A stretch of 64,000 nt of DNA from Patescibacteria group bacterium (GTDB taxonomy: Bacteria; Patescibacteriota; Patescibacteriia; Magasanikbacterales; GWA2-37-8): the NCBI GenBank assembly GCA_041649475.1, contig JBAZNA010000001.1, forward strand, positions 456,612 to 520,611, read 5' to 3'. How positions within the stretch are numbered: position 1 is the first letter of the stretch; the number at the start of each line of letters is the position of its first letter. Below the pieces are notes generated by a model that worked only from the letters and a program-made list of their open reading frames with translations, ran no database searches and was not told the origin of the DNA. The translations under genes and the position numbers were made by a program. Of this stretch, positions 8,092 to 56,245 are shown one piece after another.

Positions 8092-8481
8092 TTACCGCTG
8101 ATCACCGTAATATGCAATCTTGACGATATTGATTAGATTAAAGAAGGCATCAAACGCTTCTTGGCGCTCCAACCGTTGTCCATATTTATTTTCATATAGC
8201 GCAATAAATTTTTTAAGTCCTTCTTCGGAAATGGTGTTATTATTATGGGGATCAGCGACTACTTTGGGTGGTTGTGGTGGTTTTGTTTTTGTTAATGCTT
8301 CATCGCTGTCACTGTCCCCGTCATCATCTCCGCTCTTTGTATCCTTTTTTTGCGGCTGCGCATCAGTTTTATTTTTTCTGTTACCGGTTAAGCATGTCCT
8401 TGGTTTTTGCACGGTGATTTTCTTCTTACTCAATTTATTTTTCTTAAATGAGTCTAATATTTCTTTTGGAATTTGTCCCAT
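8092..8481 (-). CDS. hypothetical acidic small protein
   Basis: ORF only; Asp/Ser-rich central stretch. Confidence 0.3.
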   Translation of the reverse strand: MGQIPKEILDSFKKNKLSKKKITVQKPRTCLTGNRKNKTDAQPQKKDTKSGDDDGDSDSDEALTKTKPPQPPKVVADPHNNNTISEEGLKKFIALYENKYGQRLERQEAFDAFFNLINIVKIAYYGDQR

Positions 8482-29830: not shown

Positions 29831-30331
29831 ATGGTAGATATTAAAATAATTGAAGGTGATATTACAACACTAAGTGTGGATGCAATAATTAACGCTGCCA
29901 ATGAGACACTTTTGGGAGGTGGTGGTGTTGATGGGGTAATTCATTACGTTGCTGGTCCGGAGTTAAAAGAAGAATGTGAGACTTTGGGAGGATGCAAAAA
30001 AGGTGAGGCAAAAATTACTAAGGGCTATAATTTACCTGCCAAATACGTGATCCATACTGTTGGTCCAGCGTATGGTTTTGAGGGTGGTCTGGAAAAGAAA
30101 ATCTTGCAGGATTGCTACATTAACAGTTTAGAAGTTGCGAAGAAAAATAATTTACGGACCGTGGCTTTCCCAGCTATCTCTACAGGCGCATTTCGGTATC
30201 CAAAGGATATGGCAGCAAAAATTGCAATGGAATGTGTTTCCGATTATACTAGCCAATACCCTGATTCATTTGATCAGATAATATTTGTAATGTTCAGTGA
30301 ATTTGATTACCTTGTGTATAAAAGTTTATAA
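29831..30331 (+). CDS. Macro-domain protein (ADP-ribose binding/hydrolase, YmdB-like)
   Basis: IEGDITTLSVDAIINAANETLLGGGGVDGVIH...VIHTVGP...VAFPAISTGAFRYP are classic macro-domain motifs. Confidence 0.85.
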   Translation: MVDIKIIEGDITTLSVDAIINAANETLLGGGGVDGVIHYVAGPELKEECETLGGCKKGEAKITKGYNLPAKYVIHTVGPAYGFEGGLEKKILQDCYINSLEVAKKNNLRTVAFPAISTGAFRYPKDMAAKIAMECVSDYTSQYPDSFDQIIFVMFSEFDYLVYKSL

Positions 30332-31515: not shown

Positions 31516-31760
31516 TTTTCCAGTGGCTGCCGAAGAGAAGCGGACACCAGAGCGATGTCGAGCGACGCAGGCGGGCGAGACCACGATACGCATGGTGGAA
31601 CAGCAAAACACTCGCAGTTCTGTCAAAAGCAACTCATAAGATGGGTTGTTTTTGTTTACACTAAAAATAAGCAGGGGATTAAGCCAATTTAGGTATATAA
31701 ACCCCGCACATTTCGCTAAAAAAAGTTATAATAGCGTCCCGTTGGTTCCGCAAAATAATT

Positions 31761-31794: not shown

Positions 31795-32253
31795 CTATTC
31801 CACGAGTGGCACAACCTGCAGCCGGATGATTTCATCTAGTTTTGCGATATTACTGAACCATGGCAGTTTCAGGTCGGCGACCACTCGGAGCGCTTCAACG
31901 TCGTATTGCCTTGGGGATGTTTGGATCTGCCCCAATTTGTGAATATGGAGCAAGTCCGGAAACAATTCCCGCAAAGCTTTCAGACCGACAAGGAGTCGGA
32001 CACCATCCAGGATACGACGTGGCTGTGCAAGTTCACACAAGACATCCACGTAGCCCCGCTCGCTGTATTTGGCGAGAAACGCCGGTCCGATTGTGAGACG
32101 TTGCGCTCGGTTTGAAGGGTTGATACCCAGGCAGTGAGCCAGAGCATCGCCGATGTTGTGACTCGCATACCCTTCGAGATGTGAAATGAGCAGCTTTGCA
32201 ACTTCGGATTTTCCAGAACCGGAAGGTCCGGTCAAGATGATCAGTTTGTTCAT
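31795..32253 (-). CDS. small P-loop kinase-like ATP-binding protein (GC-richer gene)
   Basis: Walker A LTGPSGSGKSEV; AGGAGG ribosome-binding site before ATG at 32253; ~55% GC unlike the surroundings. Confidence 0.5.
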   Translation of the reverse strand: MNKLIILTGPSGSGKSEVAKLLISHLEGYASHNIGDALAHCLGINPSNRAQRLTIGPAFLAKYSERGYVDVLCELAQPRRILDGVRLLVGLKALRELFPDLLHIHKLGQIQTSPRQYDVEALRVVADLKLPWFSNIAKLDEIIRLQVVPLVE

Positions 32254-32325
32254 CTTTCCCCTCCTGCTTGAAAAGATCTTATAGAGTATCACTTAGTAAA
32301 AGTAATGTCAAAGATTGAGTGACAA

Positions 32326-32356
32326 AAGTTCCCACTTCGTCCCATGCACCCCGCAA
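32326..32356. repeat. 31-bp direct repeat copy 1 (AAGTTCCCACTTCGTCCCATGCACCCCGCAA)
   Basis: identical to 33309-33339. Confidence 0.8.
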
Positions 32357-32409
32357 GGTATTAAAGTCCTTCATTTGAGGAGCCCTGATCATGAAATGAT
32401 CGGGCTCTT

Positions 32410-33219
32410 TTAAGCACCATGACATTTTTTAAATTTTTTTGGTTTGCCATCATTTTTTTTCGCACCACACCAACAAGGATCATTGCGACCAATCTTTTTT
32501 TTGGAACCAGATTTTGTAGAAGGTTCCGATGGCTTTTTGCCTAGCCATATTGGACCAATAACACCGATAACTCCAGCCGGTATTTGCATTTTTAGTGAGG
32601 GATAATTAGGGATCAAAGTTTTTAACACCTCGTGGGTTATTTGCCGTATGGCTGCTAAATCGGCATCACCTACTGGAGACCGCGGATTCTGATTATCGTA
32701 AGATGTCCACCCTAATGAATTTTCATGCGCCAACTTCGCATACGCTTCATCTAATAGAGGATCTACATGAGCACCACCACCTTGGTCAGCAACAAAGAGA
32801 ATCAAGTCTTTTCTCGTAAATTCTTTACTGTAGCCATCCTTTATTACAATTTGATTCCACCATTCTGAGAAGGGTACTAACCTTCTAGAGTCATTAGGAT
32901 TCTGATCTAACCAGGGAACATATGAAGGATTCGCCCCTCCAGCCGGCACACCATAAAGACTGCAAAAAGGGCTAATCAACACTTTATCTGGAGGACTATA
33001 ACTCGTATCAAAAAAATTGGTATCTTTCTTGCCAATTTGACCCAAAACTGAATAGGAAAACTTGCTATCATGCAATAAAATGCGTAGGTCGAGTGCAAGA
33101 TAACGTGCATAGTCCCGTTCGCCCTGGTCGTATTTATTGCAGTGTCCCTGCATTGACTTTAATTTTTGCTCAAAAATTTTTAAAATGTCATCAGATTTTT
33201 GTGCTATTCTTGTTACCAT
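32410..33219 (-). CDS. SEC-C-motif protein with uncharacterised N-terminal domain
   Basis: C-terminal PCWCGAKKNDGKPKKFKKCHG equals the SecA C-terminal metal-binding (SEC-C) motif. Confidence 0.6.
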   Translation of the reverse strand: MVTRIAQKSDDILKIFEQKLKSMQGHCNKYDQGERDYARYLALDLRILLHDSKFSYSVLGQIGKKDTNFFDTSYSPPDKVLISPFCSLYGVPAGGANPSYVPWLDQNPNDSRRLVPFSEWWNQIVIKDGYSKEFTRKDLILFVADQGGGAHVDPLLDEAYAKLAHENSLGWTSYDNQNPRSPVGDADLAAIRQITHEVLKTLIPNYPSLKMQIPAGVIGVIGPIWLGKKPSEPSTKSGSKKKIGRNDPCWCGAKKNDGKPKKFKKCHGA

Positions 33220-33308
33220 AATTATTCTTTTGTTAATTCTCGTAAATATATGAGTAAAGTATACATCGACTTATTACCTAGTCAAGGATGTACACTTACT
33301 TAACCGCC

Positions 33309-33339
33309 AAGTTCCCACTTCGTCCCATGCACCCCGCAA
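33309..33339. repeat. 31-bp direct repeat copy 2, followed by a GNRA-loop hairpin
   Basis: identical 31-mer; downstream TTAAGGTAACC-GCAA-GGGCTACCTTAA. Confidence 0.8.
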
Positions 33340-33419
33340 ATTAAGGTAACCCGCAAGGGCTACCTTAATTTATATGGTTGCGGTATACTATAATCAGTTA
33401 ATTTTAATTTCCAATATAT

Positions 33420-34016
33420 ATGAAAAAAGGATATTGGTTTTGGCTTTTAATTTTAATCATATTAGGAACATTGGTTTTTTATCTTTACAAAAGTTCTAAC
33501 CCATCAGGCGAGCCGAGATCACCGGGAGAAGTTGCGCTAACAATAAAACGTACCGACGGCTTTCAGAATTGGACGAGCTTCCCGACAGCTCTGACCAATA
33601 TAGAACTCTTTGGTTTCACTTTTAATGCCACTTCAACTTTTAACGCAACATCCACCGTTGATGTGCTTATAAAAACCATCTCATTTAATACTTTTTCCAG
33701 CTCTACCCCACTAACAATTAATAATATCCGCAATATTCGTTTAATGTCAGACGGGGTTGTTTTGGGAAGTAAATCAACCATAACATCTTCTTTTGCTTTT
33801 AATGTTGACCTAACGATCCCCAAAGGTCAATATAAAAGTCTACAGTTGCGCGCCGATGCCGCACCTACAATCACTCCGGGTATTTTGCAATTTAAAATTT
33901 TTGATGTTGTGGCTCTTGACGGTCTTTTGGGGGGAAGAATTTCGGTGTTAAGATTACCTGATTTGGCTCCACTTTCTCCCGCAAATTCTTTAGATTCAAC
34001 TTCTTTTTACTTCTAA
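33420..34016 (+). CDS. hypothetical secreted/membrane-anchored protein
   Basis: N-terminal hydrophobic helix, Thr/Ser/Asn-rich. Confidence 0.45.
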   Translation: MKKGYWFWLLILIILGTLVFYLYKSSNPSGEPRSPGEVALTIKRTDGFQNWTSFPTALTNIELFGFTFNATSTFNATSTVDVLIKTISFNTFSSSTPLTINNIRNIRLMSDGVVLGSKSTITSSFAFNVDLTIPKGQYKSLQLRADAAPTITPGILQFKIFDVVALDGLLGGRISVLRLPDLAPLSPANSLDSTSFYF

Positions 34017-34097: not shown

Positions 34098-34493
34098 TCA
34101 GCACTTGTAGATCACAACCGGGATGTCATACCACATCAGCGGAGTGCGCTGGTCAATCTGCCGCAAGTGGCGTTTGGCCAAAAGGATGGCCTTCTCCCAG
34201 TTGTCAATCCCCAGTTGGGGATAGGGATGGAACATGCAGAACTCCCCGCGATGTCCGCATCCTCTCGGGTACCCTTCGGCCATGTGTTCGTGCCTTTCAG
34301 CATAGGATTCCTCGTAACCGGGGCCCATGTTGTACTGCGCCAGGGCCGTGTTGAAGTAGAAGAAGAACTCCAGTCCGAGGCTCCGCGCGACCAACACCCC
34401 TTGGGTGATCTCCCGCACCTCCTCCAGGTGCTGCATGTGCATGGCACGGAAGTGGTTCTTCACTTCCTCAAGAATCTCTTGGGTTGTCATCAC
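34098..34493 (-). CDS. hypothetical protein (high-GC island 2)
   Basis: ORF in ~60% GC DNA. Confidence 0.45.
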   Translation of the reverse strand: MMTTQEILEEVKNHFRAMHMQHLEEVREITQGVLVARSLGLEFFFYFNTALAQYNMGPGYEESYAERHEHMAEGYPRGCGHRGEFCMFHPYPQLGIDNWEKAILLAKRHLRQIDQRTPLMWYDIPVVIYKC

Positions 34494-34665
34494 TGCCTCC
34501 TTTGTAGAGATTTAAACCGGATTATTTATCCCATTTTTTTGATTTTTTGTCAATCTCGCTGTAACTTCTTGACTACCGCCCGGTTATATGTTATCTTGTG
34601 AAGTTACCAAGGTTGGCAACCAACCGCGGCATGTTCGCGGTTTGCAACTTTAAGGAGGTATTGCG

Positions 34666-35214
34666 ATGATCGAGAAGACGGACGGAATGAAGAGGGTTGA
34701 TCTGACCTTTGCGCGTAATTGCCACCTCTGTGGCAAGCGGAGCGTTACCCGTTGGTGCCCGAATTGCACCAACAAGGCCATTTCGGCCGTTGCCACCGGT
34801 CAGATCGGAACGACCCAGCCGGGCGAGGAAATCAAACGCCTCCTGTCGCCCCCGCTGGAGATGCCGCTCAACGTTCTGATCCCGCGGCTCAACCAGCTGA
34901 TCGGCAGGCCGGTTGATCTCGAGCAGATGTTGTCCATGGAGGCCTCCTTTGAGCGCTTCGTGGACCAGCCGATGTTCAGTATGGGAGAGACGGGGCCGAC
35001 GGTAACACAAGATACCCACTCCTTCGTCGCTGACGACGGCGGGGTACCCGAAACCGTGCCGCCCGAAGTTCCTTCTGATGGCACGCGACGCTACGGCTCC
35101 AACTCCCAGCCGTTTCCGGTTGGGGTGAGCGGACCGCTCACCGCGGTTCACGTGGATGATGCGGCTGACGGCGGTGCTGTCATCACCACCATCATCCCGG
35201 GAGACAGCAGGTAG
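34666..35214 (+). CDS. hypothetical Zn-ribbon protein, paralog A (FARNCHLCG...RWCPNC...LLSPPLEMP...PMF)
   Basis: ribosome-binding site AAGGAGG; shares motif set with 36037-36576. Confidence 0.5.
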   Translation: MIEKTDGMKRVDLTFARNCHLCGKRSVTRWCPNCTNKAISAVATGQIGTTQPGEEIKRLLSPPLEMPLNVLIPRLNQLIGRPVDLEQMLSMEASFERFVDQPMFSMGETGPTVTQDTHSFVADDGGVPETVPPEVPSDGTRRYGSNSQPFPVGVSGPLTAVHVDDAADGGAVITTIIPGDSR

Positions 35215-35299
35215 TTCGTTTCGTTGCCCTTTTTCCGAGTGCGCCCGCAGAGACCGTTTTTACAGGTCTCCTGGGCGCTTCTTTTTTTAATTAAAATTT

Positions 35300-35536
35300 T
35301 TATTTTGCGTTGGACAATATTTTTTTAATTCCTTCCCAGAGCATGTTGCCATAGCCGACGATGCGGTCGTTTACCACCAGTGCCGGAACTCCGCGCACGT
35401 TGTAGTACATAATCTCGCTGATCTTTGAGACCTTTTCAACAGGAACGTCTTTGTTAAGCTGTCTAAGCGCGTATTTAACATTGTCTTCCAGCTTCTGATA
35501 ATCCGGATGGCCGAAACCTAGAATTTTTATGGTCAT
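35300..35536 (-). CDS. thioredoxin-fold small protein lacking the CxxC motif
   Basis: length and pattern MTIKILGFG...GVPALVVNDRIV resemble the Thioredoxin_3 family but contain no cysteines; AT-rich unlike flanks. Confidence 0.35.
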   Translation of the reverse strand: MTIKILGFGHPDYQKLEDNVKYALRQLNKDVPVEKVSKISEIMYYNVRGVPALVVNDRIVGYGNMLWEGIKKILSNAK

Positions 35537-35707
35537 AGTTTGCAGTTAAATGTAGTTAAATATTATACCATTTTAGTAGGAGTTTATATAATCATTATAA
35601 CATTGACTTTTAAAAAAGCAAGTGGTAATGTTCTATGTTGCGAAAACAACAACCGATCCGTCGGCAAAAAGCCGCGGATCAAGCCACTTTTACGAGGAGG
35701 CAAGGGT

Positions 35708-36026
35708 CATGAGAGACAATTACAATCGTAGTGTGACAGTCGGGCTTCTCCCACAGTCGGAGGAAGATGCAGATCAGTTGGAGCTGACGGCGATGAAGTT
35801 CCTCAAGCAGATCCACATCATCATGTCGCCCGAGGAGCTCATCGCTATGATGGACAAGCACCTGGGCGTGAAGATCTCGTTTCCGCTGGCTTGGAACGCC
35901 TTCGTCCTGTTCCGCAAGCGGCAGGAGGAGGAGAAGAAGAAGGAGGACGCCGTTCCGACGGCCAGCATGCGCGAGATCACCCTGAAGTTCGGGAAGTGGC
36001 CGAGGGACAAGCAGGACAAGCAGTAG
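35708..36026 (+). CDS. hypothetical protein ending WPRDKQDKQ
   Basis: GAGGAGG ribosome-binding site before ATG at 35708. Confidence 0.45.
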
Positions 36027-36036
36027 GAGGCCAGCC

Positions 36037-36576
36037 ATGGCGCCAGGCATGGATTTCGCTTTCGCCCGCAGATGCCATATCTGCGGTGGCGGCAAGGGCA
36101 GACAGTTCATCCTCCGCTGGTGCCCCAGCTGCATAGAGACCTATGGTGAAGGTCGCCGGCCGGTCTTTGAGATGACCGAGACGGAAAGAAATCAGGAGTT
36201 GGCATTGCTCCTGTCTCCGCCCTACGAGATCCCGTTCGCTTACATCATCCGCAGAGTCATGGAACTCAAGGGTGAGACGATGGACTTCGCTGATGTCTGT
36301 CTGTTGGAAGGTCAGCTGGAGTCCGGGCACGACCGGCCCATGTTCGTCTGGCCGCCCAATACGGCCAGGACCAAGGTCGTGGTGGAGCAGGAGGAAATCG
36401 TTGAACTCACGGGCGGTCATCGCCAGCAAGTGGAAACGCTTCGGGGCGTGCCCCATGTGCCGATTCTGAAGGAACCGCCTTCAGACGGGGAAGATGCTGT
36501 GCCGACATCCGCTGGTCCGTACGACATAACCATGCCGCACGGGCCGTGGCCGAGGGACAAGAAGCCGGCCAGGTAA
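36037..36576 (+). CDS. hypothetical Zn-ribbon protein, paralog B (FARRCHICGGG...RWCPSC...LLSPPYEIP...PMF...WPRDKK)
   Basis: motif-for-motif similarity to 34666-35214; ribosome-binding site AGTAGGAGGCCAG. Confidence 0.5.
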   Translation: MAPGMDFAFARRCHICGGGKGRQFILRWCPSCIETYGEGRRPVFEMTETERNQELALLLSPPYEIPFAYIIRRVMELKGETMDFADVCLLEGQLESGHDRPMFVWPPNTARTKVVVEQEEIVELTGGHRQQVETLRGVPHVPILKEPPSDGEDAVPTSAGPYDITMPHGPWPRDKKPAR

Positions 36577-36612
36577 GCCGGCCAGGTAAAAAAGAAGTAG
36601 GAGGCCAGTCAT

Positions 36613-37952: not shown

Positions 37953-38347
37953 TGGTGGAGGTGGCGAGAGTTGAACTCGCGTCTAGATAACCTTGACTAA
38001 ACCTTCTACATACTTAGTGTCCCTTGTTGTTTCGCCAGCGCGATAGAAGGGAACTAAAATTGCGCTGACTATCCGTGCTTTATTTCGCTTGGCCCCAGGC
38101 GGAGAAAGAGCCAAACTACTCCCGGTGAGTGACACCGCTTTCAGTTACCGGGTGTAGCTGGAGCGATGGGCTAAAGCAATTAAGCTAAAGCCGGAGCTAA
38201 ATTGAAGGCACCAAACATGTTGGCGACAGCAACCTTAGCTTTTGATAATAAGTTGGCACTTATTAGTTTTGCTCCACTATTTACGAGGCCGGAGCCGCCT
38301 CGGTATGCCAGTTTAGCCGTAAGCTTCTATCAAAGCCCGGCACCCCC
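37953..38347 (-). ncRNA. ssrA: tmRNA (ssrA), approximate ends
   Basis: minus-strand 3' end GCGAGTTCAACTCTCGCCACCTCCACCA (T-arm plus encoded CCA); 5' GGGGGUG forming a 7-bp acceptor with G3:U70; internal tag ORF ...FNLAPALA-stop; adjacent to smpB. Confidence 0.6.
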
Positions 38348-45745: not shown

Positions 45746-46084
45746 AATCAGTTAAACTTTTAAAAGGCGAATAAAGCGCCCGCGAAGTACTTTACAAAAC
45801 AACGCCATCAAGGGCTGATATCCGAGAGAGTATCACCCTTAAACGCAATGTTTGTTAGTTAAAAGACCTTCAATTATGTAGCATCTCTCACCCAAGAGTA
45901 GTTTTGTTGTATTGTTATCTTGAGCGTAACGAAGAATATTGGTTAGTTCTACGTTTCGCCCAGGATAACACATAAGTGTTGTCCATCGACGCACATTACA
46001 AGTGAGATGTAGAAGTTTTTCAACCCGCCCCTGTGGGCCTTCCGCTCTAAGGGGTTCAACGGTTCCACGAAGAAGGAGGTTCTG

Positions 46085-46840
46085 ATGCCCGGTACCGCGC
46101 AGCCCGGCGACGCTCCCGCGTCCGCCACTCCCGATTCCGCGACGACCCCCCCGGCCGCCGCTCCCGACGCTGGCGCTTCCGCGTCTGCCGCCGCCCCGCC
46201 CGCCGCCCCGCAGGGCCTCCCCATGTGGGGCAAGGTCCTCGGGGGGCTCGTGCTCCTCGCCGCCATCATCGCCATCCTCCTCTACGCCAAGTCCTGCACC
46301 GACGACATCTCGTCCAAGCTGGGCAAGGTGGCGACGAAGGACGACGTGGACAAGGCCGCCGCCGGCACCAACGGCAAGATCGATCAGGGGCTCGGTTCGG
46401 TCGCGGATGCCCTGAAGGGTCAGGCCGAGGCCACGACCGGTCTCATCGGCGCCACCAAGGGTCTGACGGAGGCCATCAAGGATCATCCGACCAAGGAGGA
46501 CCTGCAAGGCATGCTCGACAAGGCCGAGGGTCGCGTGAAGCGTGCGATCTGGGGGCTGAAGAAGCAGCAGGTGGTGATCGCACCGCCCGCCGCGACTCCG
46601 CTTCCGGAGCCGCCCCTGCCGATCCCGCCCGCCCCGATCATCGTGACCCCGCCCTCCCCGCCGGACTACCTGCCCTTCCTGGAGGGGATGAACAAGACCC
46701 TGAACCAGAACCACACCATGCTGGGTGAGCTCAAGCGGAGCGTGGCCGGACTCAAGTCCAGTCACACCAGGGTGCTCGTGCCCGTCCCCTCGGGGAAGCA
46801 CAGCACCAAGATGCTCGTCAGGGTTCGGCCCACCAACTAG
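46085..46840 (+). CDS. Pro/Ala-rich membrane-anchored protein (high-GC island 3)
   Basis: AAGGAGG ribosome-binding site; TM helix LGGLVLLAAIIAILLY; Pro-rich segment. Confidence 0.5.
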   Translation: MPGTAQPGDAPASATPDSATTPPAAAPDAGASASAAAPPAAPQGLPMWGKVLGGLVLLAAIIAILLYAKSCTDDISSKLGKVATKDDVDKAAAGTNGKIDQGLGSVADALKGQAEATTGLIGATKGLTEAIKDHPTKEDLQGMLDKAEGRVKRAIWGLKKQQVVIAPPAATPLPEPPLPIPPAPIIVTPPSPPDYLPFLEGMNKTLNQNHTMLGELKRSVAGLKSSHTRVLVPVPSGKHSTKMLVRVRPTN

Positions 46841-46924
46841 ATCTACATCCCGCCATTCATCTACTCGTCCTTCGGGACGACAAGATGCTGGTCTATCGGG
46901 CTGTCGCAGACATCTGCGCAGCCC

Positions 46925-47101
46925 TCCTATCATCTTCATTTCTATGAAGTGGCGATGAAAGGACTATTAACCGCAAGGTTGATGGCCAAAGCTGTACCTT
47001 ACAACAAACGGTGAAAATGAGGGTGCGAATTGTTCGCCCCCTTTGGCAAGCTGACGACGTCGGCGCGCTTGGCGTGCCGGCTAACAGACATGGAGGATGT
47101 C
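46925..47101 (+). repeat. duplicated structured leader, copy A
   Basis: shares CATCTTCATTTCTATGAAGTGGCGATGAAAG...ATTAACCGCAAGGTTGATGGC and GGGGTGCGAAT.GTTCGC.CCCCTTTGGCAAGCTGACGACGTCGGCGCGCTTG.CGTGCCGGCT blocks with 47918-48095. Confidence 0.75.
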
Positions 47102-47848
47102 ATGAAGGCGACCGGTATCGTTCTCGTCCTGACCGTGCTCTGCGCGGTCTCCACCGCTTACGGCCAGTCGGCCGTGTGCGATCCGACCGATGTCCCGCAG
47201 ACCGATGGCTGTCACTTCAGCAAGAAGTGCAACCAGCGGTACTGCTGGGTGGAGGAGGGGAAGGTCTTCGACGCCAACCTCAACGACCTCGACACGCTCG
47301 TGGTGGAGGTGGACGTCAAGAAGCCCACCACCACTCTGGTTCCTGGTCTGACCCCGCCCGTTCCGGTTGCTCCCGCCCCCCGCATCAAGGGTTTCAGGCA
47401 CTTCCGTGCAGGCCTCTACATCAGTGGTTTTCAGACCGCTGGTGACTGGTCCTTCGGCGGAGGCCCGCAGCTGGAGTGGCACGAGCGGCTCGGTGGCAAC
47501 GGCCACTCCTGGTTCGTCCAGGCGCGAGGCGTCATCGGCACGGCCGGTGACAAGACCAATGCCAACTTCGGCATTGGTGCCTCCCTCGGCCCGGGCATCC
47601 AGCTCAAGTGGGGTCTGCGCCTCGGTGTGCGGGGTGTGCTCCTGTACTACCCCGAAACCGATAAGCTGATCAAAGAGCGCGGAAACGAGCGCTGGATCGG
47701 CGCTGAGGCAGTCGCTGGCTGGCTCTTCGGGAAGGGTTTCTTCGGAGAGGTCAGTGGCGGCTACGGCGCAAGGTGGATCGAGAAGCCGGGCATCGTCTGG
47801 CACGGTCGCGCCTCCGTCGCCTTCGTCTCCGTCGGTTGGATGCGTTAG
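47102..47848 (+). CDS. secreted Gly-rich beta-barrel-like (outer-membrane-protein-like) protein
   Basis: signal peptide MKATGIVLVLTVLCAVSTAYG-Q; alternating Gly/aromatic strands; C-terminal FVSVGWMR. Confidence 0.45.
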   Translation: MKATGIVLVLTVLCAVSTAYGQSAVCDPTDVPQTDGCHFSKKCNQRYCWVEEGKVFDANLNDLDTLVVEVDVKKPTTTLVPGLTPPVPVAPAPRIKGFRHFRAGLYISGFQTAGDWSFGGGPQLEWHERLGGNGHSWFVQARGVIGTAGDKTNANFGIGASLGPGIQLKWGLRLGVRGVLLYYPETDKLIKERGNERWIGAEAVAGWLFGKGFFGEVSGGYGARWIEKPGIVWHGRASVAFVSVGWMR

Positions 47849-47917
47849 CCACCGACATCACCGTTTCATCGGGCCGCGCGTGTTGATAACACGACGCGCG
47901 CGGCCCACCTATTTTTC

Positions 47918-48095
47918 ATCTTCATTTCTATGAAGTGGCGATGAAAGAGCCATTAACCGCAAGGTTGATGGCTGCACATTACAATTGAGAGCTACAACAA
48001 GTTACGACAATAGGGGTGCGAATGGTTCGCGGCCCCTTTGGCAAGCTGACGACGTCGGCGCGCTTGACGTGCCGGCTCAACAACTGGAGGATCAC
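47918..48095 (+). repeat. duplicated structured leader, copy B
   Basis: see copy A. Confidence 0.75.
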
Positions 48096-49220
48096 ATGAC
48101 CCGTTTCGCGCTGATCTGTTCGCTGTTCTCCGTCCTGGCCCTCGGCAACCTCGGTTGCATGGAGGGTCTCACCGCCGAGGAGATCGCTGCCTGCTCCAAC
48201 GAGGGGCAGGAGTTCTGCCCCGACGCCACGGGCGCGCTGGTCTGCGTGGATACGCTGACCGACGACCACAATTGCGGCGCGTGCGGATTCCTCTGCACCA
48301 ACGGCGCGCAGTGCGTGGCCGGTGTCTGCGACTGCAGCGGCAACGAGACCCTCTCGGCCGGCTGCCCCGTGCCCGGCAAGATCGACGCCGTGATGTGCGT
48401 CGACCTCAAGGACGATCCGCTCAACTGCGGCGCCTGCGGCAACATCTGCCCCAGTGGCCTCTGCGCGGACTACGTCTGCATCCCCGTCAGCAGCACCTGC
48501 ACCGACGGCATCAAGGATGGCGCCGAGTCCGATGTGGACTGCGGGGACGGATGCGCCAAGTGCATCAACGGCAAGATGTGCCGGCTGAACAGCGACTGCG
48601 TGAGTGGTTACTGCAACGCCAGCGGCATCTGTGCCGACGCTCCGGTCGGCGCCTGCTTCGGCAAGGCCAGCGGCACCCTGTGCCGCGCGGCCGTGTCGGA
48701 TTGCGACGTCGCGGAGTACTGCGACGGCGTGCACGCCGACTGCCCGGCCGATGGCTTTCAGGCCTTCCGCACCGCCTGCCACGTCAGTGGCGACGGCAAC
48801 GGGACCTGCAGCGGCAACGACGCCGTCTGTCGGCCCCCCACGGGTCTCTGCTCCAACGTGACGTGCGGCACCGGTCTGGTCTGTGACCCGACCGACGGCA
48901 TCTGCAAGGTGCCGGATCAGGTCACTTGCTTCGGACTGGGTCTCTCGGACCCGGGCCCGGATGCGGTGAACTGCATCTGGTGGGCGCGTGGCATCAACAA
49001 CGCCATCTCCGCCTTCACCCCGCACGACAACGTCTCGGTCGCCGCTCCGCCGCTGGCCTGTGCACTGACCTGCTACAAGGCCGACGGCTCCGACGCCACC
49101 CCCACGCTGTGCTCCGGCCAGTGGCAGAACGGGATGGTGCAGAACTGGAGCGCTTCCGGCGGCCACCTGTTGGCCGGCGGACACGGCTGCGCCTGGGACA
49201 ACAAGTACCAGTCGCAGTAG
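48096..49220 (+). CDS. secreted cysteine-rich repeat protein
   Basis: signal peptide; repeated C..CG.C...C...C units (CGACGFLCTNGAQCVAGVCDC, CGACGNICPSGLCADYVC, CGDGCAKCINGKMCRLNSDCVSGYCN). Confidence 0.55.
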   Translation: MTRFALICSLFSVLALGNLGCMEGLTAEEIAACSNEGQEFCPDATGALVCVDTLTDDHNCGACGFLCTNGAQCVAGVCDCSGNETLSAGCPVPGKIDAVMCVDLKDDPLNCGACGNICPSGLCADYVCIPVSSTCTDGIKDGAESDVDCGDGCAKCINGKMCRLNSDCVSGYCNASGICADAPVGACFGKASGTLCRAAVSDCDVAEYCDGVHADCPADGFQAFRTACHVSGDGNGTCSGNDAVCRPPTGLCSNVTCGTGLVCDPTDGICKVPDQVTCFGLGLSDPGPDAVNCIWWARGINNAISAFTPHDNVSVAAPPLACALTCYKADGSDATPTLCSGQWQNGMVQNWSASGGHLLAGGHGCAWDNKYQSQ

Positions 49221-49244
49221 GAAGTATAAAGTAGCTCTCTCCTC

Positions 49245-49287
49245 GGGCTGGGGACATGCAGTACGCATGTACCCCAGCCCCGTTTTT
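49245..49287 (+). terminator. rho-independent terminator (16-bp stem plus T5)
   Basis: GGGCTGGGGACATGC...GCATGTACCCCAGCCCCGTTTTT. Confidence 0.65.
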
Positions 49288-49427
49288 CACATGAGTCTAT
49301 CGCGTTCATCTCTCACCCCATTCTCCTTTATATTAAAGGAAAGGGCCCTGGGGCCGAATGTGATGGGCTCAATTGGTAGCATAAAAACCGCTTAAAAGGC
49401 GGTTTTTATGTTTTTGCCCGATTCCTC

Positions 49428-49456
49428 TTGACAACTTTCTCTTGTTGTGCTAATGT
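49428..49456 (+). promoter_or_regulatory. candidate promoter TTGACA-17-TAATGT in AT-rich spacer inside the GC island
   Basis: read from sequence. Confidence 0.3.
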
Positions 49457-49664
49457 ACGGTGTTATATTCAATGGTGTTGAGAGAGATACCACGAATAAA
49501 AACATAGCTTATTTAAGCCCTAAATCTCTCTCCAAGGGATTTTTATTATTGTAACTGGTGGATAGTGAAAAGTGTATAAAATAGTTAGCGGTTCTTTACA
49601 ACTATCTTGGCATGAAGAAAGGGAAAAATGCCCTTTTCTTTGTGCCAAGATATGGAGGTTTGCC

Positions 49665-50729
49665 ATGATGTTCGCTCGGAAGTTTGTTCTCGTCATCGCG
49701 GCGACCATCGTGGTCGCCACCCTCTCCGCACCGGCGCACGCCCAGTGGTTCAAGGACCGCGAGGCGCGCAAGGGTGCGAGGGAAGCCAAGTCGCTCTACG
49801 AAGCACAGCGGGAGCGCATCCAGAAGTTGGAGGCGCAGAGGGAGAACATCAACAAGCTGGAAGCTGAAGTGGCCCAGTGCTTGGCCGAGGCCAAAAAGCC
49901 AAAGCCCGCACCCGCACCGCCGACGCCCGTGTCGTGCGACCAGTCTGATCTCTACAAGAAGCTGAACAAGCTGAAGAAGTTCCAGAAGGATCAGCTTGAC
50001 AGCTTGCAGGATCAGATGACCAAGCTGGCCAGAGGCAGCAAGAAGGAGATCGGCGAGTTGCGCCAGCTCCTGGAGAGCATCAGTCGTGTTCTCCCCAACA
50101 TCAGGAGCATTGAGTCCGCCATCACCCAGCTCAAGATGGACATGAGCATCACGTCCAACAACGTCAACGAGATCTTGAACGAGATGGCGGGAGCTCTCAC
50201 CAATCTCAAGAAGACCGACAAGCGTCTGGAGAAGGTGGAGAGTGACCTCTCCGGCCTGCACAAGCGGGTGGAGAAGGTGGAGAAGGTTCTGCTCACCAAG
50301 CAGGACAAGCTCTTCGTTGACATCAGCGTCGGCAGCCGCGTCAGCTGGTTCAAGGGCGATTCCGTGGAGCCGTATGTCGAGCTCCGGCTGGACTTTGAGG
50401 TTCCCTCGGACGGGCTCTGCTCGTTCGTGCCGGGTTTCAGTCTGGCTTTCGCAACCAGCAAGGACAAGGCGCCTGCCAATGCCGTACGCCTCATGGGCAA
50501 GTGCGGCCGCCGGACTTTCAGATTCCTGTTCGGCGTGGAAGAACTGATGGTGGCCAAGACCGAGACCGGTCCGGGCCAGTTCACCTGGTACGTCAACCCC
50601 ATCATCGGCATCGCCATCGGCGGCCGGTGGGCGGAGTTCACACTACTGGGTTCACCAAGCATCCGGTTCCGTGAGGCCAATGCCGCCTTCGGTGTGCAAG
50701 GTTTCGCGGGTCTGGTGATCCGTTTCTAA
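49665..50729 (+). CDS. secreted protein: N-terminal coiled coil plus C-terminal beta-barrel-like domain ending in Phe (OMP-type C-terminus)
   Basis: GGAGG ribosome-binding site 6 nt before ATG; signal peptide ...SAPAHA-QW; heptad repeats; C-terminal ...FAGLVIRF. Confidence 0.5.
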   Translation: MMFARKFVLVIAATIVVATLSAPAHAQWFKDREARKGAREAKSLYEAQRERIQKLEAQRENINKLEAEVAQCLAEAKKPKPAPAPPTPVSCDQSDLYKKLNKLKKFQKDQLDSLQDQMTKLARGSKKEIGELRQLLESISRVLPNIRSIESAITQLKMDMSITSNNVNEILNEMAGALTNLKKTDKRLEKVESDLSGLHKRVEKVEKVLLTKQDKLFVDISVGSRVSWFKGDSVEPYVELRLDFEVPSDGLCSFVPGFSLAFATSKDKAPANAVRLMGKCGRRTFRFLFGVEELMVAKTETGPGQFTWYVNPIIGIAIGGRWAEFTLLGSPSIRFREANAAFGVQGFAGLVIRF

Positions 50730-50899
50730 CAACCAACAAGGGGGAAACAAAGGGGAGGGTCGCAGCTTTCGCGAGCGCGACTCTCCTCATCCTATATCTG
50801 TTCATAAAATTATAAAAAGTTTTTGTGGATACATATAGGAGGAGCAAGACAACAAGCGCTCCTTACAATTTTAACGCATGAACACGATGGAGGCGAATC

Positions 50900-52144
50900 A
50901 TGAGCGAGAAGAACGGAAGGGCCGAAGGGTCCTCGTTTGACGAGGACACTGCGGCAGAGGGGGAGCCGACGCTTCCGGGCAGCCACAGGCCGACGCTTCA
51001 AGGCATCGCGCCAGTGACGCTGCAAGGCATCGCGCCGATGACACTGCCGGATGATCCGGCACGCGAGTTTGACGCGGCGCCCGACACCGTCATCCCGCCG
51101 CCGGTCCCGTTCGGCGGTCCGCCGGAGCCCGGCGAGGAGGAAGGGGCGTCTGCTCCTGCCTCCACCAACTCCGCTGATGATCAGCAAGAGATGGTGACGG
51201 CAGCGCTGGCCCAGGAAGTTCTGGGGACGCTGACGCACAAGCCGCCCACCCCGATTCTCTCCGACACTGATGCGCCGCGAGAGTTGGCAGGGATGGAGGA
51301 CGAGTTCCAGCAGACGGCGTCGACCGCCCAGGGGCAGTTGCCTTTGGGCATCAGGGAGGCGATGCCTGCCCGGCCGATGGAGGACAACGAGCAGTCCGGT
51401 CCGATTCCTGCGAACCAGAACGACCTGTTCGGTCCGCCCTCGGGCATCATGGACTTCGCCGCTCCCACGGTAGACCTGGCGCATGCTAACACCGCGGTCG
51501 TGGACACCTCTGGTGTGCCGACTGTGGACCAGGCGTTCGCACCGACCAAGCCGATGGGGGCTGTGGCCGTCCAGAACGGCGATGCGCCCAAGAAGGGTCC
51601 GCCGCCCATGCCGCCCATTTCGCTGGCCAAGTTGGCCAGCGAGGTCAAAGCGGCAGATCTGGCAGCGAATCCCGCGCCGACGTCCTCCCCAAGGGCCACC
51701 CTTCCGGGTGTGGCTCCGGCGGAGCCCGTGCCCGTCGTGGTCGCGCCTGCGGCTACGGAGGACAAGAGCACCCGCACTTTGGTGCGGGAAGAGCTCGCGT
51801 CCGAGCCCGAGCCCAAGATCGTCATGCCCGAGCCCGACCCCGTCGTCGCGCCTGTCGAGCCCGACCCGCCCGCTGACGACAGTGAGTCCTACGAGCCCAT
51901 CCGTCCGCCGAAGCGTAAGCGAGGTGGCGGGAACTTCCCGTGGGGCATCACGATCGGGTCCGGCCTGATCCTGATCATGTTCGCGATCGTCATCGCTTTC
52001 AGCCAGTCCGGCCGCGAAGATTACCAAGAGGACATCGCCTCCTGCGTCAACACCTTGACGAAGGAGGAGAAAGTGCCCACGGCCAAGGCCACCGAGATCT
52101 GCAAGCGGGTTGATGCTGACATGTTCAGCAAGACCAAGAAGTAG
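50900..52144 (+). CDS. Pro-rich protein with C-terminal TM anchor
   Basis: GGAGG ribosome-binding site; Pro/Ala/Glu-rich; TM ITIGSGLILIMFAIVIAF. Confidence 0.5.
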   Translation: MSEKNGRAEGSSFDEDTAAEGEPTLPGSHRPTLQGIAPVTLQGIAPMTLPDDPAREFDAAPDTVIPPPVPFGGPPEPGEEEGASAPASTNSADDQQEMVTAALAQEVLGTLTHKPPTPILSDTDAPRELAGMEDEFQQTASTAQGQLPLGIREAMPARPMEDNEQSGPIPANQNDLFGPPSGIMDFAAPTVDLAHANTAVVDTSGVPTVDQAFAPTKPMGAVAVQNGDAPKKGPPPMPPISLAKLASEVKAADLAANPAPTSSPRATLPGVAPAEPVPVVVAPAATEDKSTRTLVREELASEPEPKIVMPEPDPVVAPVEPDPPADDSESYEPIRPPKRKRGGGNFPWGITIGSGLILIMFAIVIAFSQSGREDYQEDIASCVNTLTKEEKVPTAKATEICKRVDADMFSKTKK

Positions 52145-52478
52145 GTTCATGCACACTGTACGGCGTTACGCTTCTTTAACGAAGTAAACGCTGTCTGATA
52201 TACGCTGTGAGCTGTTGCGAGTGAAATCGCGATGACTCACAGCCTCCTACCAATTTATATTTTTATCTGTTATGCTATGTTGACAGCGAAAAGTATAAGC
52301 TGGTAGGAGGATGTCCTTTACAATCTAGGTTAGAGTAAAAAAGTAAGTTTAGAAAGTAAGAAAAATCCCGACCAAAGGGAAACTTTTGTGTCGGCGGAAA
52401 TATAGAAGTAGAAGTCCTGTCCACGTTCCGCTTTCGCGAGTGCGAGAGGGGACACTCAACGAGGTAAGGGAGGTAGCC

Positions 52479-55430
52479 ATGAAGCGACTGTCCGTGTTGT
52501 GTCTCTGTACCTTGGGGGTTCTCTGCAGCTTCGGCTGCATGAGCCCCCTCCCGAGCAGCACCGATAACGGGCTGCACAACCAGGCGAACGGCGCCGGTTG
52601 CGGCGACGACGCGCAGTGCATCTCCGGCTTCTGCCGGAACGGCGTCTGCTGCAGCACGGACTGCGGCGACGTGTGCGAGGCCTGCAACCTCGTGCCCGGC
52701 ACCTGCCAGCCCAAGCCGGCCGGCGCGCCCGACAAGGCGTGCCCGAGCGACGGCACCAATTGCGGCGGCAGCTGCAACGGCGCGCGGGTCTGCCAGTACC
52801 CGCAGGCGGGAACGTCGTGCACCAGCACGATCAACCCGCTCGCGATCCAGTGCGACGGCCTTGGTGCCTGCATCCAGCCGCCGTACTACCCGAACGGCCA
52901 TCCGTGCGACGAGACGGCGCCCGGCCAGTGCGCCAGCGGCAAGTGCGTCGATGGCACCTGTTGCGACAGCGACTGCACCCAGACCTGCTTCTCCTGCAAT
53001 AACCCCGAGGGTCACTGCAAGCCGCTTCCGGCCCAGGACAACTCGGATGGCGACTGCGTCACCGACGGCAGCCTCTGCGGCGGTTCCTGCAACGGCTGGA
53101 ACGCCTGCATGTACCCGCCGTCGGGTACCGTGTGCGACCTGCCCAACAGCTGGGCCAGCTCGTGCAACGGCGCCGGCGTCTGCGTGCCCAACACCCTGTT
53201 CCCCGACGGCACGGCTTGCACCGCGGATGCGCAGTGCCTCCACGGCAATTGCAAGGACGGCGTCTGCTGCAACACGGCTTGTGGTGGCGTGTGCGAGGCC
53301 TGCGACCAGATCGGTTCCGTGGGCACTTGCACGCCTTATCTGCCGAACACCGACCCCGAGAACGAGTGCACACCGGCTGGCCAGACCTGCAGCGGCACCA
53401 GCGCGTGCAGCTCCAACCCCCAGCCCCTGATCGACGGGGCAACCTGCTTCAGGAACGGCCCGTGGCCGGAGGGGGACTGCAAGTCCGGCTTCTGCGTGGA
53501 GGGCGTGTGCTGCGACGACGGCTGCAACGGCGCCTGCTTCACCTGCAAGCGTGCCGGCTACGTCGGCCACTGCATGCTCGCTCCGGAGGGAACCAACCCC
53601 AAGGGCGCGAGCGACGGTTGCATCGGCACCGATCCCAACAACTGCGGCGGCCTGTGCAACGCCGTCGGCGCCTGCCAGTACCCGGCGGCTACCACGCCGT
53701 GCACCCTTCCCACCACTCCGCTCGCGGCGTGCAATGGCGAGGGTCTCTGCGTGGACCAGCGCCAGGCCGACGGCTCGGCCTGTACCGGCGACATCCAGTG
53801 CATCTCCGGCCACTGCGTGGAGGGCATGTGCTGTGATTCGGTCTGTGGCGGGCTCTGCGTGGCCTGCACCAACGCCAAGACCGGAGCCGCCGACGGCACC
53901 TGTTGGCCGGTTCCTCAGAACACCGACCCGGACAGCGAGTGCGCCGGTACGGATCCCACCTGTGGTGGAACCTGCGATGGGGCTGGCTCCTGCCAGTTCC
54001 CGGCGCAGGGAGAGGCGTGTACCTCTCCGGTGGGGGAGATCTGCGACGGCGCGGGCAACTGCGTGGTCAACCCAGGTCTGCTCCTCGGCAGCTTCTGCAA
54101 CCTGCCGTCCGGCAGCGAGTGCGCGTCCGGCCACTGTGTGGACGGCGTGTGCTGCGACACGGCCTGCGACGGCGTGTGCGTGGCCTGCGACGTGCCGGGT
54201 CACCTCGGCATCTGTAGCAACGTACCGGCCGGCGAGGACGACCTCACCTGTCAGCCGCCCGATTCCTGCGACGGCGCCGGCGTCTGCAAGCCCCCCGTGG
54301 TCCTCAAGACCAACGGTGCTGTCTGCGGGCTCCCCAGCGAGTGCGCTTCCCAGCACTGCGTCGACGGTGTGTGCTGTGACACGGCCTGCGACGGCGTGTG
54401 CGTGGCCTGCATCGCGGTCATGACCGGTGGTACCACCGGCACCTGTGCCAGCATCACCGGCGGAACGGATCCGGACCTCGAGTGTGACGGTTCCAGCACC
54501 GCCGACGGCTGCGACGGCTCCTGCAGTGGGGCTGGCTCCTGCCAGTATCCGCTCCAGGCAACGTCGTGCGGCACCAACCTGATCTGCAACGGATCGGGTG
54601 ACTGCATCGCCGTGCCCCCCGAGGGCAACGGCGAGCCGTGCGGTTCGGCACTTCCGCCCTGCGCGTCCGGCCACTGTGTGGACGGCGTGTGCTGCGACAC
54701 CGACTGCCTCGGTCTCTGCATGGCATGCAACGTGCCAGGCAGGCTCGGCACCTGCTACGCGATTCCGGCCGGCACGGATCCTGCCAACGAGTGCACGGAT
54801 CCGCTCGCCGACTTCTGCGATGGTGTGGGTGCCTGCGTCGGCATGACGCCGCCGCAGTCCGACGCCGGAGTGCCGCCGCAGTCCGACGCGGCACCCCAGT
54901 CCGATGCCGCACCGCCCCAGAGCGACGCGGCACCCCAGTCCGATGCGGGCGTTCCCCAGTCCGATGCCGCACCGAGCGGTTGTATGAACGACACCCAGTG
55001 CGACGATAGCAACGCAACCACGGCGGACATGTGCAACTGCCCGGGGCCTCGCTCCGGTGGAATCTGCACAGCACCGGGTGTCTGCGTGCACACCACCAAC
55101 GGCTGCTGGCCCTTCGGGGTCAAGTTGCCGGCCGGTACTCCGGTCACCGTGGTGTCGTTCTGGCCGAAGACCGCTCCCTGGATCTCGCGCAACGTGACCA
55201 TCACGTCCAACGCGTTGGCCCAGGAGATCCTGTCCGCGGCCGGCGAGTGCTCGCACACTGAGGACTACCCCACGCTCTTTGCGACCTGCGAGGCCGACAC
55301 GTTCCCAGTCGGCGCGCCGACGGGCACCACGCGGATCTCCTACTTCGGAGACAACCGCGAGGTGAACTTCTGCACGCAGAACCTCGCCAACTGCGCCTGG
55401 GGTGGCGCACACGACGGCGTCTGCCACTAG
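52479..55430 (+). CDS. giant lipoprotein: about 11 tandem cysteine-rich ~85-aa repeats, PQSDA tandem repeats, distinct C-terminal domain
   Basis: GGGAGG ribosome-binding site; lipobox LCSFGC; repeat unit C.SG.C..G.CC...C.G.C.AC...G..GTC...P...DP..EC.......CGG.C.G.G.CQYP; DNA-level near-identical segments (54121-54190, 54361-54420, 54664-54700). Confidence 0.65.
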   Translation: MKRLSVLCLCTLGVLCSFGCMSPLPSSTDNGLHNQANGAGCGDDAQCISGFCRNGVCCSTDCGDVCEACNLVPGTCQPKPAGAPDKACPSDGTNCGGSCNGARVCQYPQAGTSCTSTINPLAIQCDGLGACIQPPYYPNGHPCDETAPGQCASGKCVDGTCCDSDCTQTCFSCNNPEGHCKPLPAQDNSDGDCVTDGSLCGGSCNGWNACMYPPSGTVCDLPNSWASSCNGAGVCVPNTLFPDGTACTADAQCLHGNCKDGVCCNTACGGVCEACDQIGSVGTCTPYLPNTDPENECTPAGQTCSGTSACSSNPQPLIDGATCFRNGPWPEGDCKSGFCVEGVCCDDGCNGACFTCKRAGYVGHCMLAPEGTNPKGASDGCIGTDPNNCGGLCNAVGACQYPAATTPCTLPTTPLAACNGEGLCVDQRQADGSACTGDIQCISGHCVEGMCCDSVCGGLCVACTNAKTGAADGTCWPVPQNTDPDSECAGTDPTCGGTCDGAGSCQFPAQGEACTSPVGEICDGAGNCVVNPGLLLGSFCNLPSGSECASGHCVDGVCCDTACDGVCVACDVPGHLGICSNVPAGEDDLTCQPPDSCDGAGVCKPPVVLKTNGAVCGLPSECASQHCVDGVCCDTACDGVCVACIAVMTGGTTGTCASITGGTDPDLECDGSSTADGCDGSCSGAGSCQYPLQATSCGTNLICNGSGDCIAVPPEGNGEPCGSALPPCASGHCVDGVCCDTDCLGLCMACNVPGRLGTCYAIPAGTDPANECTDPLADFCDGVGACVGMTPPQSDAGVPPQSDAAPQSDAAPPQSDAAPQSDAGVPQSDAAPSGCMNDTQCDDSNATTADMCNCPGPRSGGICTAPGVCVHTTNGCWPFGVKLPAGTPVTVVSFWPKTAPWISRNVTITSNALAQEILSAAGECSHTEDYPTLFATCEADTFPVGAPTGTTRISYFGDNREVNFCTQNLANCAWGGAHDGVCH

Positions 55431-55633
55431 TTGGCAGAACGCTTACTCTAACCTCGACGGACGCTTCGGCGACCGTCGTCACAATCAGTAACAGCAATTA
55501 ATAGTGCACCTTATTCAACAACCTCTCCGATTCCGGAGAGGTAAGGAGGAAACAGGGGAGCTGCTTCGGCCGCTCCCCACTCTCATTCTGTTTAGAACTT
55601 TAAAATTATAAATAGAATGAGAGGAGGATTACG

Positions 55634-56245
55634 ATGAACAAGTTCATGTGGGTCGCGCTTTGCGCGGCTTTGACCGGCTGTACCTTTGACAAGAGCGCCC
55701 TTGGCCCTTGGGCACAGGACGCTTTCCCTGACGCAGATTCCGCGCCAGACGTGTCTGTGCCCGACGGCGGTGTCCATGACACCCTGGGTCACGACACCGG
55801 TCGCGACACCATCGCGACCGACACCCTGCAGAGTGACACACTCCAGAGCGATGTGCTCCAGCAGGACACCCTGGTTCAACAGGACGTTCTGCCCCAGACC
55901 GACGCTCCGCCGTATGCCCAATGCACCGGTATGGAGATGGAGTTCTCCACCCAAAAACTGGCGCAGATCAGCGACTGTGAACAGTTCAAGGTGGATGGCC
56001 AGCACCCGGAGTTCACCCCGGTCACGGAAGTGATCATCATTCCGGGCGGTGTCTGTACAGTCATCTGTCACGACAAGGCCGGCGGCGGAAGAACCGTCCT
56101 GCCCGACAAGTGCCGGGGGTTGTGGAGCGCTCCATACACCTACGCTCCGTGGACCCAGACCGGTTGCAGGCAGTTGCCTGCCAACGTGGGTCAGACACCC
56201 GATCAGTCGGGTTGTGACTGGCTCCCGGATTGCACGGTCTTTTGA
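55634..56245 (+). CDS. lipoprotein with DT(L/I)Q-type short repeats
   Basis: AGGAGG ribosome-binding site; lipobox LTGC; repeats DTLQSDTLQSDVLQQDTLVQQDVL. Confidence 0.5.
   Translation: MNKFMWVALCAALTGCTFDKSALGPWAQDAFPDADSAPDVSVPDGGVHDTLGHDTGRDTIATDTLQSDTLQSDVLQQDTLVQQDVLPQTDAPPYAQCTGMEMEFSTQKLAQISDCEQFKVDGQHPEFTPVTEVIIIPGGVCTVICHDKAGGGRTVLPDKCRGLWSAPYTYAPWTQTGCRQLPANVGQTPDQSGCDWLPDCTVF

Follow-up and report, generated by a model that had tools for sequence, protein, structure and literature searches.

Introduction

Clusters of attC sites without an integrase (CALINs) have been described with IntegronFinder (PMC4889954), and in T4-type phages the variable regions carry non-essential single open reading frames (ORFs) flanked by modules of a terminator hairpin and a promoter (PeSLs), recombination between neighbouring modules swapping genes and yielding mini-circles (PMC2839356, PMC4122927). 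Multicopy small RNAs (sRNAs) with three UCCC motifs, such as LhrC, occur on the other hand in low-GC bacteria (PMC4132741). Here we analyse a stretch of 64,000 nucleotides (the window) from the genome of a Patescibacteria group bacterium (contig JBAZNA010000001.1), in which a perfect 31-bp direct repeat brackets a single gene coding for a protein with a C-terminal SEC-C motif, hereafter the SEC-C-tail gene. The genomes of Patescibacteria, or the candidate phyla radiation (CPR), are small and thought to be poor in classical mobile elements, and gene gain and loss in them are poorly understood. On balance we lean towards reading the 31-mer as the recombination joint between the single-gene cassettes of a small array, to which the SEC-C-tail gene would be a recent addition.

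Results

A 31-bp direct repeat around a single gene

The 31-mer AAGTTCCCACTTCGTCCCATGCACCCCGCAA occurs on the forward strand of the window in two exact copies, at 32326-32356 (W1) and 33309-33339 (W2); the pair had been proposed in an original prediction made from the sequence alone, and an exact-match search of the window confirmed it. Allowing up to three mismatches, there was no third copy in the 64 kb and none in 100 shuffles, whereas profile R1 (see below) recovers W1 with E=2e-12 and W2 with E=3e-13. An exhaustive search for exact repeats, together with blastn of both intergenic regions, limited the W1/W2 identity to exactly 31 bp, the flanks being unrelated. The exact match, its absence from the shuffles and these sharp edges make the repeat real and place it far beyond chance. 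As predicted too, the copies enclose exactly one gene, the 269-aa ORF at 32410-33219 on the reverse strand. In alignments with the copies found in relatives the central GTCCCAT of the site is invariant, and the site extends to the left over TACTTAACCGCC (33297-33308, forward strand; core CTTAAYnnnCC), an arm common to W2 and to two copies of the relatives (L119a and L114B) and absent at W1.

The k=31 Logan assembly of run SRR8542065 breaks exactly at W1 and W2, its contig L001 corresponding to window positions 32327-33338 and its contig L002 beginning at 33310. A 31-bp repeat interrupts a k=31 graph in just this way, and the breaks fit a repeat that is real in the reads; the break pattern is the same for an integrated and for an excised cassette. 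That the length of the repeat equals the k of this assembler would suit an assembly artefact, and perfect direct repeats about 1 kb apart would suit a transposon target-site duplication, one of the origins first proposed for the pair, but we regard both as hardly credible. The repeat is presumably shorter than a typical short read, is present in the 963-kb contig and recurs with the same architecture in material sampled and assembled independently (L114 and L115 from JGI, L119 from Logan). Reading of the inner ends disclosed no convincing terminal inverted repeat and no transposase accompanies them, 31 bp exceeds to our knowledge the length of known target-site duplications, and the conserved left arm stands beside W2, whereas simple duplication of a target would place it beside W1. 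A target-site duplication is accordingly unlikely as an origin of the pair.

The site is duplicated around other genes in related genomes

Two related genomes were reached, represented by L114/L115 and by L119. L114, 12.5 kb fetched from a 109-kb JGI contig, is syntenic with the window over ligA, PPDK, tRNA-Asp, the kinase-like gene that neighbours W1 and rplT-rpmI-infC, the interval from PPDK to rplT measuring about 6 kb in L114 versus about 31 kb in the window. Its orthologue of the kinase-like gene (64% identity) lies about 130 nt from tRNA-Asp, between the tRNA gene and the site. Upstream of this orthologue, in the same position as W1, the copy L114B (5990-6020, TTGTGAGGTGTATGGGACGAAGTGAGAACTT) agrees with the window site at 27/31 positions; a second copy in the same orientation 632 bp away, L114A, agrees with it at 25/31, and L114A and L114B are identical to each other at 23/31. 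They bracket a single unrelated gene of 107 aa on the opposite strand, with 62-65% GC. This gene (5551-5874) has a strong Shine-Dalgarno sequence, codes for an extremely basic, Arg/Lys-rich protein and has no homologue in the window. L115, a JGI contig from a different sample, has the same arrangement as L114.

On the Logan contig L119 the order is tRNA-Asp 3' end, a 204-aa gene, the site, a canonical terminator, a promoter region, a 199-aa gene and again the site. The 199-aa gene is the orthologue (58% identity) of the 198-aa gene found to the right of W2 in the window, and the promoter region preceding it is clearly orthologous to window positions 33371-33419. The first copy, L119a (703-733), matches the window site at 29/31 positions and is orthologous to W2; the second, L119b, matches it at 26/31, 732 bp away, so that here it is the orthologue of the window's 198-aa gene which is bracketed. 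In L114 as in L119, tRNA-Asp adjoins the start of the array. W1 and W2 agree at every position and end sharply, whereas the copies within each related genome agree at 23-27 of 31 positions, which argues for a recent event in the window. A search for an empty site in the closest species representative, Ca. Falkowbacteria UBA917, whose helicase is 55% identical, was abandoned, gene order ending right after the helicase.

Specificity of the site and gene-order breakpoints

Profile R1, built from the six copies, recovers those copies only when run over the window and 81 kb of related and control loci, the true copies having E values from 1e-13 to 2e-11 and everything else E >1; a mismatch scan of about 919 kb of fetched loci gave no copies beyond the six either. 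A third, degenerate copy at 31723-31753 (19/31; TTGCGG-N7-GGGACG-N7-AACTT), after the terminator of the kinase-like gene, was considered and rejected, since it rests on a post-hoc pattern and the unbiased profile misses it. The 22-mer core has no match in genome, metagenome and viral contig collections, which do not contain the source contig, and looser patterns of the site have none in the viral contig collection.

The source genome (963 kb; locus tags WC526_02370/02375) was sampled for further copies over 77.7 kb, about 8% of its length, and no further copy was found with up to 11 mismatches in the window or with fewer than 12 in about 14 kb of extra flanks. These figures bear on another of the origins first proposed, a dispersed intergenic repeat resembling repetitive extragenic palindromic (REP) elements, which would be present in many copies genome-wide, the pair in the window being neighbours by chance. 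The small share of the 963 kb sampled leaves it some room, and the adjacent hairpins recall many intergenic repeat families. Nonetheless, at least 40 evenly spread copies would be missed in 77.7 kb with p<0.05 only, the motif is non-palindromic, and in all three genomes the copies cluster at the tRNA-Asp-proximal locus. We hold a REP-like origin to be improbable, and the high copy number that the original prediction had named as its own refutation is not seen within the sampled 77.7 kb.

Comparison of the flanks revealed where the genomes part. W1 and L114B have a common left flank, with the kinase promoter (58% identity, z=3.3), and unrelated right flanks. W2 and L119a agree throughout the right flank and, on the left, over about 20 nt (CTTAAC..CC), beyond which they are unrelated, the left side of this break being occupied by the promoter of the SEC-C-tail gene in the window versus the end of the 204-aa gene in L119. 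Gene order between the genomes breaks at the site copies or within about 20 nt of them, and the kinase-like and 198-aa genes are the only ones common to the three arrays. Taken together, the flank comparisons and these two sole common genes show that the variable segments are bounded by the site. As to a derivation of the site from the 3' end of tRNA-Asp, the two agree at 13/17 of the last 17 nt, a similarity that is not significant in shuffles (p=0.056 with the window copy, 0.15-0.61 with the remaining copies).

Hairpins and promoters around the site

The hairpins that the original prediction had placed at the flanks were found by folding. The first, of 28 nt with a T-tract (32380-32407, forward strand), lies 23 nt past W1 and adjoins the stop codon of the SEC-C-tail gene; a terminator-like call on the same strand (32384-32404) falls within it. 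The second, of 30 nt with a GCAA loop (33340-33369, forward strand; z = -3.6), directly follows W2 and in the alignment takes the position of the canonical terminator after L119a. A hairpin is present 0-27 nt downstream of every copy with known downstream sequence (n=5), with a proper T-tract in four of the five; the fifth, that of W2, is a strong hairpin with a weaker T-tract. The 31-nt motif itself is left unpaired in the predicted folds.

Within the cassette a sigma-70-like promoter was called for the SEC-C-tail gene (TTGACT-16-TATACT, 33258-33285, reverse strand), and outside it, beyond W1, the promoter of the kinase-like gene can be read from the sequence (TTGACA-17-TACTCT, 32283-32311, reverse strand), its counterpart in L114 being called as TTGACG-17-TATTCT. 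On the reverse strand W1 is thus placed 14 nt and W2 23 nt upstream of the -35 boxes, and L114B is 22 nt upstream of that of the kinase orthologue. All site copies have the same chromosomal orientation and the genes between them lie either way, which fits a recombination site better than a regulatory element linked to a gene. A leader peptide starting from an ATG within the site on the reverse strand was discarded, the reading frames not being conserved.

The layout of these signals invites two readings in which no gene needs to have moved through the site. The strongest rival of a recombination joint, although we judge it unlikely, is the seed of a multicopy (sibling) sRNA or of an RNA derived from a 3' untranslated region (3' UTR), made from the forward strand and targeting G-rich ribosome-binding sites, the intervening genes being variable island content. 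The unpaired 31-nt C-rich stretch holds three UCCC-like boxes (UUCCCA, GUCCCA and ACCCCG), the invariant GTCCCAT is followed in sense orientation by the canonical hairpins and T-tracts just described for four of five copies, and in L119 and at L114A the gene upstream has the site in its 3' UTR. LhrC1-5 and RsaE/RoxS likewise display an unpaired, C-rich segment with three such boxes, an intrinsic terminator and several copies per genome, some of them close together (PMC4132741). Unlike in those families, however, no promoter was found here: upstream of W1, W2 and L114B there is neither a sense sigma-70-like promoter nor a sense gene. The site has no match in Rfam, the promoter and terminator are not co-duplicated, only 31 nt are common to the copies, and the gene-order breakpoints at the copies would be left unexplained.

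On the other hand, the short distances from W1, W2 and L114B to the -35 boxes downstream of them, together with the moderate conservation of the whole kinase upstream region, would agree with a binding site for a regulator, an insulator or a nucleoid protein, copied by chance or gene conversion with no gene movement. L114A, L119a and L119b are nonetheless downstream of genes and, in that orientation, not upstream of promoters, and such a site would explain neither the sharp 31-bp identity nor the breakpoints; we consider it less probable still than the sRNA.

The enclosed gene and its homologues in other arrays

The protein encoded by the enclosed gene consists of a conserved N-domain of about 210 aa and the C-terminal SEC-C zinc motif, which scores 20.4 bits against Pfam SEC-C (PF02810), exactly the gathering cut-off of 20.4, and so counts as a member of that family. 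Its variant of the motif carries an inserted 'KNDGKP' otherwise found only in the closest homologue (P0002). The 59 homologues, of which the closest is 46% identical, are scattered across phyla, and about a third of those aligned are missing the SEC-C tail. The protein matches phrog_7805 (E=8e-43), and the family also occurs in actinophages, in Lactobacillus phages and on many plasmids, being common on those of Lactococcus. In the homologue alignment the N-domain has invariant D31, R46, F117, R136, G148, G149, H151, D153, R192, Q193 and E197, and the motifs DGGAHVD and RQxxHE; it may be an enzyme. The AlphaFold2 model is confident (pLDDT 89) and has no fold match in the PDB; in BFVD it resembles only an uncharacterised Gordonia phage protein. 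Scans of the protein against Pfam, NCBIfam and PADLOC matched the SEC-C tail only, PHROGs and BFVD returned uncharacterised phage proteins only, and no recombinase domain is present in this single ORF of the cassette.

The original prediction had suggested that homologues elsewhere be inspected for the same flanks. Among 80 metagenome loci with homologues that were fetched, 69 were usable for a comparison of the 400 nt to the left with the 400 nt to the right of the gene, mismatched flank pairs serving as null (95th percentile score 11). Strong flanking direct repeats were found in four of the 69, 938-1171 bp apart and with scores of 34-97. One of these four, L096 (3806-4909), is a textbook integron cassette with two 159-nt attC sites (GCCTAAC...GTTAGGC), the stop codon lying inside the first box, and a pattern and folding scan placed attC-like palindromes directly after the homologue in L061, L062 and L111. 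L035 and L101 are further homologue loci of genuine integron-cassette type.

A different arrangement is that of L043 (1-2728), likewise one of the four, where three units without an integrase (678, 668 and 1171 bp) stand behind an intact tRNA-Phe, and all of them close with a repeat of the tRNA 3' end plus a terminator. In order, they encode a secreted protein, two proteins resembling a toxin-antitoxin pair and the SEC-C-tail homologue; the pair appears BrnT/BrnA-like by eye, and units 1 and 3 are also alike over the ~45 nt that lead up to the repeat. L064 and L048 hold three copies each of other junction sequences. From L096, L043 and similar loci it follows that members of the family move as single-gene cassettes, and do so in arrays of several unrelated types. 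Homologues elsewhere are often cassette-borne, the junction repeats there not being the 31-mer itself, which the scan of fetched loci did not detect at them. Being a typical passenger gene, the SEC-C-tail gene may have a role in defence or addiction.

Neighbouring genes and the tRNA-Asp locus

To the left of W1 the kinase-like P-loop gene (31795-32253, reverse strand, 152 aa) has weak P-loop matches in Pfam and homologues at 84-61% identity. It had been called foreign-looking; since a relative has the orthologue at this very locus, likewise behind the site, a recent import can be set aside. To the right of W2 lies the 198-aa gene (33420-34016, forward strand) with its orthologue in L119. The GC content differs from unit to unit, amounting to about 50% in the kinase-like gene, 41% in the SEC-C-tail gene, 37% in the 198-aa gene and 63% in the L114 insert, in a backbone of 31-45% GC with GC-richer islands.

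Next to tRNA-Asp, where the array begins in both relatives, the window departs from them: within 6387-31795, about 25 kb of extra DNA separate tRNA-Asp (6387-6462, forward strand) from the array. A large serine recombinase gene (6423-8117) overlaps or abuts the 3' end of the tRNA gene and is followed by a D5-like primase/helicase gene (8895-10373). Integrated elements, one or several, or else a defence island probably make up this DNA. The recombinase (6.4-8.1 kb) was rejected as the agent acting on the 31-mer: the relatives do not have it, and 31-bp direct repeats are not what its chemistry leaves. The 25-kb segment also contains many ORFs without detected homologues, a 1589-aa SF1 helicase, a WYL protein, a 1131-aa UvrD/nuclease fusion, DUF559 and, at 29831-30331, a macro-domain-like protein by eye.

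Some further features of the window deserve mention in their own right. GC-rich islands (53-70% GC) extend over 34100-36600 and 46000-56000; an independent assembly (L002) joins them to core genes without a break, and L114 likewise has small GC-rich genes between AT-rich ones. The first island contains paralogues with zinc-ribbon-like N-termini (34666-35214 and 36037-36576), and the second large cysteine-rich proteins with disintegrin-like repeats (52386-55430). A second repeat pair with about 990-bp spacing is found at 46930-47082 and 47916-48077, composed of 57 nt (95%) and 64 nt (94%) around a variable middle. It corresponds to structured upstream regions of the consecutive, unrelated GC-rich genes 47102-47848 and 48096-49220, both with signal-peptide-like N-termini, brackets one gene and gave no match in Rfam. 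The tmRNA gene (37953-38347) adjoins smpB and infC-rpmI-rplT and has an unusual predicted tag peptide, ANLLSKAKVAVANMFGAFNLAPALA.

Discussion

A conserved 31-bp site is duplicated around different genes in three genomes, and gene order breaks at it. What we infer from these observations is recombination at the site, together with its direction and its mechanism. According to the mechanism that we propose, an array of single-gene cassettes joined by the 31-mer would have formed downstream of tRNA-Asp in this lineage of Patescibacteria. Recombination at the site would have inserted a unit of about 980 bp, comprising the SEC-C-tail gene, the promoter belonging to it and a hairpin, between the kinase-like and the 198-aa genes, leaving one copy of the site on each side, and W1 and W2 could in turn serve as substrates for circular excision of the unit or for deletion of the gene. 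A site-specific recombinase encoded at an unlinked locus might act here; alternatively, the copies might recombine homologously as do the PeSLs of T4-type phages, a mode that by this analogy would also produce the observed pattern.

The closest comparison is with integrons and CALINs. Single-gene units of about 0.6-1.2 kb are separated by directly oriented junctions alike within an array, the cargo varies between relatives, no integrase is found nearby, as in a CALIN, and the cargo family itself sits in genuine attC cassettes elsewhere (L096, L061, L062 and L111). The junction is nevertheless a non-palindromic 31 nt and not a folded attC with RYYYAAC...GTTRRRY ends; the cassettes have their own promoters and lie in both orientations, whereas attC cassettes are mostly promoterless and co-oriented; and no intI or attI was found, in a host that belongs to the Patescibacteria. 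With attC taken as an imperfectly palindromic stretch of 50-180 nt that begins with RYYYAAC and finishes with GTTRRRY, the pattern and folding scan found none within 2 kb of the cassette, the only matches in the window between 28 and 38 kb being two weak overlapping ones (35473-35561). A classical integron was discarded for want of attC and, among most window ORFs of at least 110 aa, of intI, and sites of the attC, dif/Xer or CRISPR type for want of dyad symmetry and of R''/R' boxes and because the spacing is wrong.

With tRNA-linked accretion arrays, where integrative elements pile up in tandem and the repeats are 3' fragments of the tRNA gene, the locus has in common that it begins beside a tRNA gene (tRNA-Asp in L114 and L119) and that repeats in the same orientation separate small units, and L043 shows how integrase-less units of 0.67-1.17 kb accumulate in this way, a homologue of the cargo included. 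The 31-mer, however, shows no significant match to the 3' end of tRNA-Asp, the units have no integrase within or beside them, and in the window the array is 25 kb from tRNA-Asp. As for PeSLs, these too are short conserved intergenic modules in which a hairpin and a promoter flank single ORFs; yet there the repeated part is the promoter plus the stem-loop, in about 50 copies per phage genome, whereas here the repeat lies between a hairpin and a promoter whose sequences differ, in two copies per locus, and the host is a bacterial chromosome, so that the locus does not qualify as a PeSL array. With moderate confidence it can be said that the system works like an integron or a tRNA-linked accretion array, yet belongs to neither; it looks like a small, previously undescribed array of swappable genes.

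Several findings weigh against recombination at the 31-mer. The motif shows neither dyad symmetry nor a hairpin of its own on folding, one or the other being usual in the core sites of known recombinases. No tyrosine recombinase or integron integrase was detected in Pfam scans that covered most window ORFs of at least 110 aa, or in the 12.5 kb of L114, and the sole recombinase is the large serine recombinase, 24 kb off. Neither a circular junction nor a true empty site, with the kinase-like gene beside the 198-aa gene, was observed. The site is known from three genomes and 8% of the source genome was read; the ancestral-looking left arm is at W2 and not at W1, which requires that the cassette carried the arm; and the candidate copy at 31723-31753 was not recovered by the unbiased profile. 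The cassette att site first proposed is in short partly supported, by the conservation of the site, its duplication around other single genes and its coincidence with breakpoints, but not by a recombinase, a circle or an empty site.

It is tempting to speculate further, though only tentatively, that Patescibacteria of this lineage possess a previously undescribed, integron-like form of gene capture, in which promoter-bearing single-gene cassettes would enter and leave at a non-palindromic site of about 31-42 nt accompanied by a hairpin, served by an unlinked recombinase and arrayed beside tRNA-Asp. If this were true, the gene-capture site would be a new kind of recombination site, unlike attC in sequence and in structure. 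The SEC-C-tail family, for its part, is a passenger in integron cassettes, in tRNA-linked mini-arrays, on plasmids and in phages, with a confidently predicted fold that has no solved relative. A conserved junction site for swaps of single genes would offer a concrete and testable handle on the gene flux of Patescibacteria.

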